Assembly (NCBI GenBank): GCA_016839815.1
Contig: JAEOTM010000032.1
Span: 66,879 to 130,878 of the forward strand
Length of the DNA: 64,000 nucleotides
Source: Candidatus Hodarchaeota archaeon
GTDB taxonomy: Archaea > Asgardarchaeota > Heimdallarchaeia > Hodarchaeales > Hodarchaeaceae
Reading direction: 5' to 3'
Shown: piece after piece, positions 21,803 through 28,817 of the stretch
How positions within the stretch are numbered: position 1 is the stretch's first letter
Layout: each line of letters begins with the position of its first letter
Translations under genes and position numbers: made by a program
Notes under the pieces: model-generated
The model's input: the letters and a program-made list of their open reading frames with translations, nothing else
The model's database searches: none
Told to the model about the DNA's origin: nothing

Positions 21803-22063
21803 TTTTTTAACCACTTTTTTACTAATTAGTTTTATCTACAGATAACTTTTCAAGAGGATATTTAACGATTGGTTTAACAATTGTAAATTATGATATGAAA
21901 TGCTATAACATATATAAATATGAATAACAAAAATACTCATTTAATTTATATAGCATAGATCAAAATGTAGAAAACCATATAAACTTTTTACGAAAAAGAG
22001 ATTTTTGAAAAGCTTCGATCACAAAAATTCGCTTAAATCAAGTTTACAAGTGGAAGATCTAGA

Positions 22064-25121: not shown

Positions 25122-25685
25122 TTAATCGTGACTGATCGCTTTTTTCTGTATCAGAGAAATAACCCCACAAGCACCACAGCGGTTCTGACAAGAATGATCA
25201 TCGAAAAGTTGCTTTACAGAGTTTGGATGATTGAATAACCAGAAGGGTTTGTCAGCAAATCCTTCTGTTTCTTTAACGAAGAAGCTATTCCGTCTTTTTA
25301 CTCCTGGAAGATGACTAAGGGGAAAAGTATCGATAAATTTACTAATTTTCTCCCTCGAATCAGCTACTAAACAGATAACAAGATTATACTCAAAACCTGA
25401 AACAGAGAACATCGCGGTAACCAAAGGACAATCTTGGAAATATTCCAAGATTGCTTGTTCAGTATCGGGATTTGTTATTTCAATAAAGGATAGAGCATGA
25501 CTAAATTTGAGCTGTGTGATATTAATTCCAATACCTGGAGAAATCAGATTTTTTTCCTCAAGATCATCAAATCTCGCTTTAATAGTTCCTTTAGCATAGC
25601 TTAAGTCTTTTGCAGCTTGATTAAAAGAACAACGTGGATGCTTTTGAAAATAATCAATAATTTTCTTGTCTTTTTCGTCTATCAT
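25122..25685 (-). CDS. Lrp/AsnC family regulator with C-terminal Cys cluster
   Basis: IDEKDKKII HTH, SGFEYNL RAM domain, C-terminal CQNRCGAC. Confidence 0.9.
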   Translation of the reverse strand: MIDEKDKKIIDYFQKHPRCSFNQAAKDLSYAKGTIKARFDDLEEKNLISPGIGINITQLKFSHALSFIEITNPDTEQAILEYFQDCPLVTAMFSVSGFEYNLVICLVADSREKISKFIDTFPLSHLPGVKRRNSFFVKETEGFADKPFWLFNHPNSVKQLFDDHSCQNRCGACGVISLIQKKAISHD

Positions 25686-27200: not shown

Positions 27201-27611
27201 TTAAAGAAACATTACCCGATCAGCAAGCATTGCCTCTTCAGCAAGAGTATTGACTCCTGCGATTTTATCAACCATAGGAAGAAGATCTTCTTTTTCTAAT
27301 CCTAAGATTTCTGTGATTTGAACACAGGCTACAATTGTTACTTCTCCCAGATCTTTCAAATCTTCGAGCAGCTCTTTCCAATGCAGCAAATTTCCAGCCT
27401 TTCTTGCCTGATTGACTTTTTCTACCACTTCAGGGTAGATACTAGTGACATCTGGTTCAGGAGGAGCATCCTTTTTCAAGGCATAAACCGCATCGTGCAT
27501 GAAGAAAATAAGTACTTCATGGTCACTGGTTACCGCTCCAGATGCTATAATTGCTAAGGTCTGCAGTTTATCAGTAGCCGCAGAATCACAAACCATAAGA
27601 AATTTTCCCAT
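27201..27611 (-). CDS. DsrE/DsrF-like (DrsE_2) family protein
   Basis: IFFMHDAV and IVAC motifs. Confidence 0.85.
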   Translation of the reverse strand: MGKFLMVCDSAATDKLQTLAIIASGAVTSDHEVLIFFMHDAVYALKKDAPPEPDVTSIYPEVVEKVNQARKAGNLLHWKELLEDLKDLGEVTIVACVQITEILGLEKEDLLPMVDKIAGVNTLAEEAMLADRVMFL

Positions 27612-27645: not shown

Positions 27646-28134
27646 TTACATGAAAAGGGTGATATCAGCATCTTTCGCAAATTCAAGGAATGTTGCTGCA
27701 CCACCAGTCTCGACACCATCAATAATATCGGATTTTTTAATGCCCATGACATCCTGGGTCATCTGACAGGCGATCATACGAACTCCACCTTCAATACAGG
27801 CTTCACGGAGTTCCTCAAATTTTGCGACATTAGCCTTTTTCATCCAGCTTTTCATCATCATCGTCGCAATCCGGGTCATTCCAGGCAACATTCCCATCCA
27901 ATTTGGAACGGGTATTAGTCCGAATGCTTTCGGTGCTGCAGGATTAGCTATGGGGCTAACTTTGAGGTCCTTACTACGTTTTTTGTGAATTAGATCGAAA
28001 CCATAGAATGTAAAGAAAATCGCGACTTCCATATCCATGGCCACACCTGTTGAAGCTAGGAGAACAGGGGGATAAGCTGCATCAAGAGTTCCTTGGGATG
28101 CAATAATTGCCATACGTTTAGGTTTTTCACTCAT
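27646..28134 (-). CDS. DsrE2/YrkE-like sulfur carrier
   Basis: GTLD.AYPP, IFFTFYG, IACQMT and GGAATFL motifs. Confidence 0.92.
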   Translation of the reverse strand: MSEKPKRMAIIASQGTLDAAYPPVLLASTGVAMDMEVAIFFTFYGFDLIHKKRSKDLKVSPIANPAAPKAFGLIPVPNWMGMLPGMTRIATMMMKSWMKKANVAKFEELREACIEGGVRMIACQMTQDVMGIKKSDIIDGVETGGAATFLEFAKDADITLFM

Positions 28135-28147
28135 AATGTCGCATCCT

Positions 28148-28384
28148 TTACTTCATTCGTTTGACTAAATATCGATAATCTTTTGGACCTAACTCTTCAG
28201 AAGAAAGAAGATCTTGTCCAGTGGTACGTGTCCAAGCAGGAATATCAGCCATACTTCCAGGGTCAGTTGATAGTATTTCTAAAATTTGACCGATTTCCAT
28301 TTCTTTCAAAGCTTTCTTTGATTTTAGAACTGGCATTGGGCAACTCAAGCCGCGCGCATCTAAGGTTTTATGTACTTGACTCAT
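28148..28384 (-). CDS. tusA: TusA family sulfur carrier
   Basis: LDARGLSCPMP and TDPGS..DIPAW motifs. ATG 28384 with SD-like AAGGA is preferred over TTG 28510. Confidence 0.93.
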   Translation of the reverse strand: MSQVHKTLDARGLSCPMPVLKSKKALKEMEIGQILEILSTDPGSMADIPAWTRTTGQDLLSSEELGPKDYRYLVKRMK

Positions 28385-28560
28385 ATTATTTTCATCCTTA
28401 AGTGTTTGATTAAGTGTTTCTTTGTTATTACCATTATTTGTAGTGAATAGTTCCAAAATCTTTGAATCTTTGGCTAGGAATTCCGAACTAAGGATGGTTT
28501 GAGGTTTCAAACCACCGTTTGGATTGTTAAGAGTGGTTATGTGCGTTGAAACTATTCAAT
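28385..28560 (-). ncRNA. Putative structured cis-regulatory 5' leader of the tusA-dsrE-sqr operon
   Basis: 13-bp closing helix (28546-28558 with 28444-28456), alternative internal hairpins and an anti-SD octamer. Starts about 25 nt downstream of the TATA box. Confidence 0.5.
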
Positions 28561-28568
28561 GTACAGCT

Positions 28569-28598
28569 TTGCCAATGAGTTTATAAATCAATTGGCGA
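28569..28598 (-). promoter_or_regulatory. TATA box (TTTATAAA, 28580-28587) inside an inverted repeat GCCAAT...ATTGGC
   Basis: Read directly from the sequence; likely promoter plus operator. Confidence 0.55.
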
Positions 28599-28799
28599 AG
28601 TGGACACAAAGGCATCTATTGCCGTAATTTCTCTATTTCTTAACTATAGAAGAGATTTTTTGTAATAAATTACTCTATATACTGGAAAATGGGAAAAAAG
28701 AGGGATTAAGTCTAATTTAATTTTTACTCCATGCAAAAAAAATTACCCCGTAGATACCTCTGATGGTATCTTTAAGTTGATTAGACTTCTTTTTCAATC

Positions 28800-28817
28800 A
28801 TTGACCAATTGGTCAAT
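28800..28817. promoter_or_regulatory. Perfect 18-bp palindrome ATTGACCAATTGGTCAAT (putative operator)
   Basis: Exactly self-complementary; lies in a divergent intergenic region. Confidence 0.55.

Follow-up and report, generated by a model that had tools for sequence, protein, structure and literature searches.

A conserved structured leader predicted at the mRNA start of a sulfur-carrier operon in Hodarchaeales

Does the long non-coding leader of a sulfur-trafficking operon in an Asgard archaeon carry an RNA switch, and what might read it? The locus lies in a 64,000-nt stretch of DNA (hereafter, the window) from an archaeon of the Hodarchaeales, the archaeal order proposed as closest to eukaryotes; its genome is about 89% complete. 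Close relatives of the host carry the labels Hodarchaeota, Hodarchaeales or Heimdallarchaeota, and one of them is Ca. Hodarchaeum mangrovi. Archaeal cis-regulatory RNAs, confirmed or predicted, number a handful (PMC7247131), and the literature that we searched describes none for this operon or for Hodarchaeales. The original prediction had placed a translational switch upstream of the operon, with alternative pairings and a segment complementary to the Shine-Dalgarno (SD) site of the first gene. RNA structure in the long non-coding leader was borne out by covariation; the switch as drawn was not, as its pairs lack compensatory change.

Operon, promoter and operator boxes

The genes of the operon and the predicted promoter elements are as follows.

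28148–28384, minus strand: tusA (78 aa), gene 1; PF01206; ATG at 28384
27646–28134, minus strand: dsrE2; PF13686; NF047629 score slightly under the cut-off
27201–27611, minus strand: dsrE-like gene; PF02635
26930–27172, minus strand: second tusA; PF01206
25726–26898, minus strand: gene for a type III SQR-like flavoprotein
25122–25685, minus strand: Lrp/AsnC regulator gene, last in the operon, with a conserved C-x3-C-x2-C tail
28580–28587, minus strand: TATA box, 30 nt upstream of the predicted +1
28591–28608: operator box (about −42), an 18-bp degenerate palindrome matching a PWM built from homologs; putative Lrp-type site
28559–28576: operator box (about −10) between TATA and +1, matching the homolog PWM
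28800–28817: distal operator (about −251), a perfect palindrome

The order tusA-dsrE2-dsrE-tusA-sqr-lrp was retained in every homolog locus of sufficient length. The operon dsrE2 was present in 11 of 22 genus genomes and in two genomes of the sister family, and all 11 of these genus genomes have orthologs of the operon Lrp with its three-cysteine tail. The leader element was absent from the sole readable upstream region of the sister family. Many genus members also have TusA paralogs with in-frame rhodanese-like fusions (L011, L020, L023, L024 and others), with no such leader directly upstream of the TusA part. Within the window, the interval 21815–22063, between the neighbouring tusA-mvhD-hdrA operon and a divergent lrp, contained neither the leader's terminal helix (P1, below) nor operator boxes.

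The TATA box lies upstream of the leader, as originally described. Its start is 30 nt from a conserved G in nearly all leaders, and standard archaeal promoter geometry identifies this G as +1; in the window, transcription most likely starts at G28557. The leader sits between this predicted promoter and the first gene, on the same strand; it is non-coding, and its association with the operon is constant.

Promoters of the homologs (n = 25) contain 18-bp degenerate palindromes centred at about −40 and −9, often also at about −71, with a spacing of 31 bp. The window promoter has the boxes near −40 and −9 plus the perfect distal copy. As the box matrix was trained on the two proximal boxes, the independent evidence comes from the −71 box and from the promoter of an unrelated operon, which has a paralogous Lrp as its last gene and is preceded by similar 31-bp-spaced boxes. 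There, the paralogous Lrp (51% identical) comes after a gene for a 1064-aa FAD/Fe-S/CCG oxidoreductase (L169:1607-1686 and L170, in genomes G016 and G001), and the leader of about 130 nt that follows the boxes lacks P1. P1 as a general companion of Lrp systems was rejected on this account: the paralogous operon has the boxes, not P1.

The phased boxes are probably binding sites of the operon's own Lrp, which we infer to autoregulate the operon and which may sense sulfur or redox state; the three-Cys tail is a possible metal, Fe-S or persulfide sensor. Ss-LrpB of Sulfolobus binds three palindromes at regular spacing, wrapping about 100 bp (PMC1802622). For the promoter part only, our locus is alike: regularly spaced degenerate palindromes with an AT-rich centre, near an lrp-containing unit. 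It differs in its consensus (18 bp, with a GRCCAWWTGGYC core), in the three-Cys tail of the Lrp and in that binding is predicted.

The terminal helix and its interior

Our sample, drawn from genomes, metagenomes and individual contigs, comprised 25 complete leaders located before orthologous tusA genes plus two partial ones; some 50 other TusA clusters lie outside it. From +1 to tusA, 24 leaders measured 156–187 nt and one measured 116 nt. We distinguished clade A (eight sequences including the window genome, 173 nt, no indels), clade B (eight leaders) and a mixed set C (10). Along the window leader, in RNA order, the elements are as follows.

28546–28557, minus strand: P1, 5' strand, from the predicted +1 (G28557); 100% identical in clade A, covariation genus-wide
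28524–28545, minus strand: junction J1/2, single-stranded, with CGCAC invariant in clade A; 82% identity against 60% at four-fold sites
28517–28523, minus strand: P2 base, 5' strand (UCC core); 82% of cells paired, two pairs with compensatory change
28493–28516, minus strand: apical 10-bp hairpin; in clade A 52% identity, 81% paired, five pairs with compensatory change
28482–28488, minus strand: P2 base, 3' strand; CGGA invariant in clade A
28457–28465, minus strand: junction J2/1, with a conserved UCARAGA adjoining P1; 94% identity in clade A against 60% at four-fold sites
28445–28456, minus strand: P1, 3' strand, ending at +113; covariation
28401–28444, minus strand: AU-rich spacer including a genome-private 10-mer repeat; 72% identity

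The 176-nt stretch of the original prediction folds at z = −2.5. The 118 nt from the predicted +1 reached z = −4.4, with none of 200 shuffles equally stable, and the opposite strand z = −2.1. None of the other promoter-like long leaders in the genome, 116 in all, has so long a 5'-terminal stem: 12 bp here, and 8 bp in the runner-up. Two helices proposed at the outset are present and kept in relatives: a 13-bp stem with one G-U (28558–28546/28456–28444), which contains P1, and the 10-bp hairpin (28516–28493).

Across 24 aligned leaders, 86.5% of the P1 cells were paired and 38 were compensatory; neither value was reached in 500 shuffles, and slid controls were far lower. Because related sequences inflate such counts, compensatory cells were recounted on the tusA tree. 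Pair 4 was paired in 24/24 leaders with two independent U-A/C-G swaps, and pairs 10–12 share three to four changes each. In P1, G-U cells far exceeded A-C cells (26 against 3), which points to RNA on this, the transcribed, strand. The 5' end reads GRAYAG in all leaders (GAAGAG in one), and CURUUC occurs at about +108 to +113 in most. The P1-to-P1 span is 113 nt in 16 leaders, 112 nt in five, and 111, 110 and 102 nt in one each (110–113 nt in 23 of 24); in clade B, P1 extends to 13–16 bp. When the first 118 nt were folded alone, the closing stem formed at P ≥ 0.67 in 24 of 25 leaders. Once downstream RNA was included, P1 no longer dominated the prediction for several leaders of clade A and of set C. 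Two domains are shorter, L150:527-628 (102 nt) and L141:585-675 (about 91 nt), by about 11 and 22 nt relative to 113; with two cases, this may be chance.

The interior is clade-specific. In clade A, the inner arm (P2 base and 10-bp hairpin) is 52–80% identical and 81–82% paired, with seven compensated pairs; P1 and P2 together have 12 compensatory cells, a count that none of 500 shuffles equalled. Invariant junctions exist within clade B too, but they differ from those of clade A. Across clades, the interior is not alignable, only the P1 ends are common, and there is no invariant ligand-type core genus-wide. The covariance models of clades A and B recognise each other weakly, chiefly via P1. 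No K-turn, BHB, C/D or H/ACA motif was seen on inspection. Two invariant single-stranded segments of clade B, GUCACCG and CUUUCACUCA (for example in L006:1355-1361 and L150), show complementarity both to the canonical SD and to AUG-AGU-GAA, a common start context.

Searches for known relatives were negative. The comparison with known classes suggested by the original prediction gave, for the window locus and eight homolog loci, no match in Rfam 15 at gathering thresholds and noise only at E up to 10. Covariance models found one copy per genome, always upstream of the sulfur operon and in this genus only; the clade A model, run against 83 class genomes, did not find the element outside the genus. 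Blastn, pattern and covariance models revealed no extra copies in the genome or class, and the loose pattern search was dominated by chance. A MITE or other mobile inverted-repeat element was rejected given the single copy at an orthologous site, and DNA inversion was rejected on inspection. Taken as sequence predictions, these results describe a folded domain of about 113 bases at the predicted mRNA start that is real, conserved and uncatalogued.

A divergent second tusA in genome G013 (L025:1366-1503, contig C64) has kept, in decaying form, the 3' half alone of a clade B leader; the next gene encodes a flavoprotein, not DsrE2. The main operon of the same genome has a clade A leader.

The Shine-Dalgarno site and the proposed switch

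Two further segments bear on translation of tusA.

28393–28399, minus strand: weak SD with an AGGA core; −4.7 kcal/mol with the genus 16S tail
28489–28496, minus strand: proposed anti-SD; just a 4-nt UYYU core kept, in 7/8 clade A leaders

The SD upstream of tusA is genuine but weak, since AGGA is all that the canonical 16S tail of the genus pairs with. In genome G007, a 16S rRNA match (L167:1501-3725) spans about 2225 nt, about 750 nt more than in relatives, suggesting an intron or insertion.

The original prediction had paired CAUCCUUA (28496–28489) with UAAGGAUG (28400–28393). The two are indeed exact complements, and the match is significant against shuffles in the window genome and in one relative (p about 0.01 each) and in none of the other 23 leaders. 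Conservation did not follow, as the anti-SD/SD helix shows zero compensatory changes and pairs no better than shuffles. The UYYU:AGGA pairing remaining in 7/8 clade A leaders is a 4-bp core, one among many such short helices, and the UYYU bases can alternatively pair with the invariant GGA. A similar fate befell the alternative partner of the hairpin: AACCACU (28538–28532) can pair with GGUGGUU (28516–28510), with zero compensatory changes and a fit no better than shuffles. The 10-mer direct repeat next to the SD (28419–28410 and 28407–28398) exists as described and is private to the window genome.

We also compared predicted SD accessibility between states. The SD was more accessible with P1 closed than with its 5' strand blocked in 23 of 25 leaders, and equally accessible in two. 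Shuffled interiors behave alike, so this SD-freeing effect is generic. In the opened state, occlusion of the SD matched that of shuffled interiors (median percentile 0.52). Opened leaders are thus no better at masking the SD than shuffled interiors and show no sign of an evolved anti-SD, and selected occlusion of the SD by the interior was rejected. The P1 3' strand was likewise rejected as an anti-SD, being no better against the SD than against random RBSs.

Candidate functions and known systems

The reading that we favour, at roughly even odds, is a new cis-acting structured 5' leader. It would shield the 5' end and leave the weak SD accessible, and it may be gated by a protein. Under this model, an mRNA starting at G28557 would carry the domain of about 113 nt as its first part. 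Its 5' end would pair with +102 to +113, as covariation indicates, around a clade-specific interior whose hairpins are supported by covariation in clade A. Closed P1 is predicted to bury the 5' end and to keep the interior, which is rich in pyrimidines, from reaching the weak SD 45 nt downstream; for this reason, the closed form would be the stable, translatable one, and opening or trimming would lower expression. The domain would thereby set mRNA lifetime or translation. Since the switch pairs are not conserved, protection or gating of the message appears likelier than metabolite sensing. Reading by a protein rather than a metabolite pocket is suggested by what is constant genus-wide, namely the terminal helix and the length around an exchangeable interior. 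The reader could be TusA or another product of the operon, or else a general factor of RNA decay or initiation. A sulfur or redox signal would enter mainly at transcription initiation, via the Cys-tailed Lrp on the phased boxes.

The rival readings differ in what they ask of P1 and the interior. A metabolite-binding translational riboswitch that hides the SD would suit a long leader with a closing helix, conserved unpaired junctions, a variable hairpin and a metabolic operon downstream, and it would make sense of the perfect 8-nt anti-SD in the window genome, of its counterpart in L002 (8/8 with one G-U), of the UYYU:AGGA core and of the 1–7 kcal/mol that separate P1-closed and anti-SD states in clade A. 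Against it stand the accessibility and compensation results above (including significance in 2/25 leaders), the lack of an Rfam aptamer class and the restriction to the genus. Aptamer nucleotides that bind ligand are conserved in riboswitches (PMC8241225); here, a single genus already shows different junction nucleotides from clade to clade, and a model built on one clade finds little but P1 in another. We consider this reading decidedly improbable. Release of the 113-nt domain through processing or premature termination, yielding a stable small RNA that acts in trans or at long range, is unlikely, if less so. A blunt terminal helix with fixed sequence and length resembles independent small RNAs, C/A-rich loops complementary to SD or start-codon sequences offer a possible route, and the invariant GUCACCG of clade B pairs with the dsrE2 SD (p 0.006–0.2 in five related leaders, post hoc). 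This complementarity was not significant in clade A, however. In addition, no conserved U-tract or terminator was found after P1, complementarity or identity to 16S rRNA, tRNAs and the operon was of chance length only, and a TROVE/Ro60 gene was not found in the window genome, about 89% complete.

Very improbable, in our view, is that a transcription factor binds the P1 arms as inverted DNA sites and loops about 107 bp, with the RNA fold incidental. The terminal 6 bp are conserved in sequence at fixed spacing, in clade A the 5' arm forms a 5-4-5 palindrome of its own, and the short variants, at 102 and about 91 nt, lie roughly one and two helical turns below 113, a periodicity that is not significant with only two length variants. 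By contrast, the strong preference for G-U over A-C and the covarying inner hairpin speak for RNA, the stem runs to 12–16 bp with clade-specific sequence, the operator PWM gives nothing at P1 and the 5-4-5 palindrome is absent in clade B. Least probable by far is a coding leader, either a leader-peptide attenuator or a translated N-terminal extension of TusA. Clade A has no indels in 173 nt and few in-frame stops, and gene callers extend several TusAs to 118–120 aa. Nevertheless, synonymous and non-synonymous changes stand at 53:246 in the extension against 414:156 in tusA, third-position bias is lacking, the frame is interrupted by stops in L138 and in the majority of leaders from clade B and set C, and no conserved uORF with an SD was found. 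The frame from TTG 28510, whose translation would have spoken against the original prediction, is accordingly not coding. A lack of conservation or covariation in relatives would have counted against that prediction too, and the opposite was observed. A SECIS element was also rejected: 90 alignments of operon proteins contained no in-frame UGA (0 stops). The Sec trait is mostly missing from Hodarchaeales (PMC11227280).

Among known systems, the element is a structured leader of a known general kind, outside every riboswitch family. The fluoride riboswitch of Thermococcus kodakarensis, the sole experimentally shown natural archaeal riboswitch as of 2021 (PMC8241225), is likewise a structured archaeal 5' leader upstream of a detoxification or metabolic gene with an SD nearby. 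The Hodarchaeales leader differs from it in having no Rfam match, conserved ligand core or SD-pairing, and in being genus-restricted, whereas the fluoride riboswitch is cross-domain. Protein-binding leaders are often limited to lineages (PMC7247131). The r-leaders (archaeal S15/eL15/L4 candidates, PMC7247131; the L7Ae k-turn leader, PMC6298567) are, like ours, covarying, lineage-limited cis leaders before an operon; here, the operon is non-ribosomal, no k-turn was seen, no mimicry of 16S rRNA was detected and the protein ligand is hypothetical. Long 5' UTRs of Methanolobus psychrophilus also exceed 150 nt and are proposed to act post-transcriptionally on stability or translation (PMC5378194), but the Hodarchaeales leader has a defined, length-fixed, covarying domain closed at the extreme 5' end. 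The constancy of terminal helix and total length, with the interior swapped between close clades, suggests a recognition mode unlike that of a classical aptamer. Y RNA and YrlA are about 110 nt long, with paired ends, a large pyrimidine-rich internal loop and a variable interior. Size, paired ends, pyrimidine-rich loop and variable interior thus resemble those of the Hodarchaeales leader, which lacks the bulged-C Ro60 helix and lies inside a predicted mRNA leader. A Y RNA was rejected, as no TROVE/Ro60 partner gene was found in the window genome.

The leader is well supported as an RNA structure, and the Cys-tailed Lrp with its phased boxes would add a transcriptional layer. Its significance is tempered by the restriction to one genus, by the lack of a conserved switch and by a transcript predicted from sequence. 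The protective-leader model leaves the fixed length of about 113 nt and the clade-replaced invariant junctions unexplained. An active post-transcriptional switch for sulfur trafficking, in which a factor grips or measures the terminal helix and opens or cleaves the domain, lowering operon expression and possibly freeing a small RNA, is rather improbable; the factor might, for instance, be TusA, acting differently when empty and when persulfide-loaded, or a small sulfur ligand in clade-specific pockets. If true, it would place control of sulfur trafficking by RNA in the order proposed closest to eukaryotes.

Returning to the favoured protective leader, a clear RNase J ortholog was lacking in the window genome, about 89% complete, and the enzymes from which the 5' end is shielded would then need to be of the aCPSF type. 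aCPSF1 is present in this genome. An aCPSF-like beta-CASP match (G000:C6:75989-77356) has two in-frame TGA codons, consistent with a broken gene, sequencing error or recoding.
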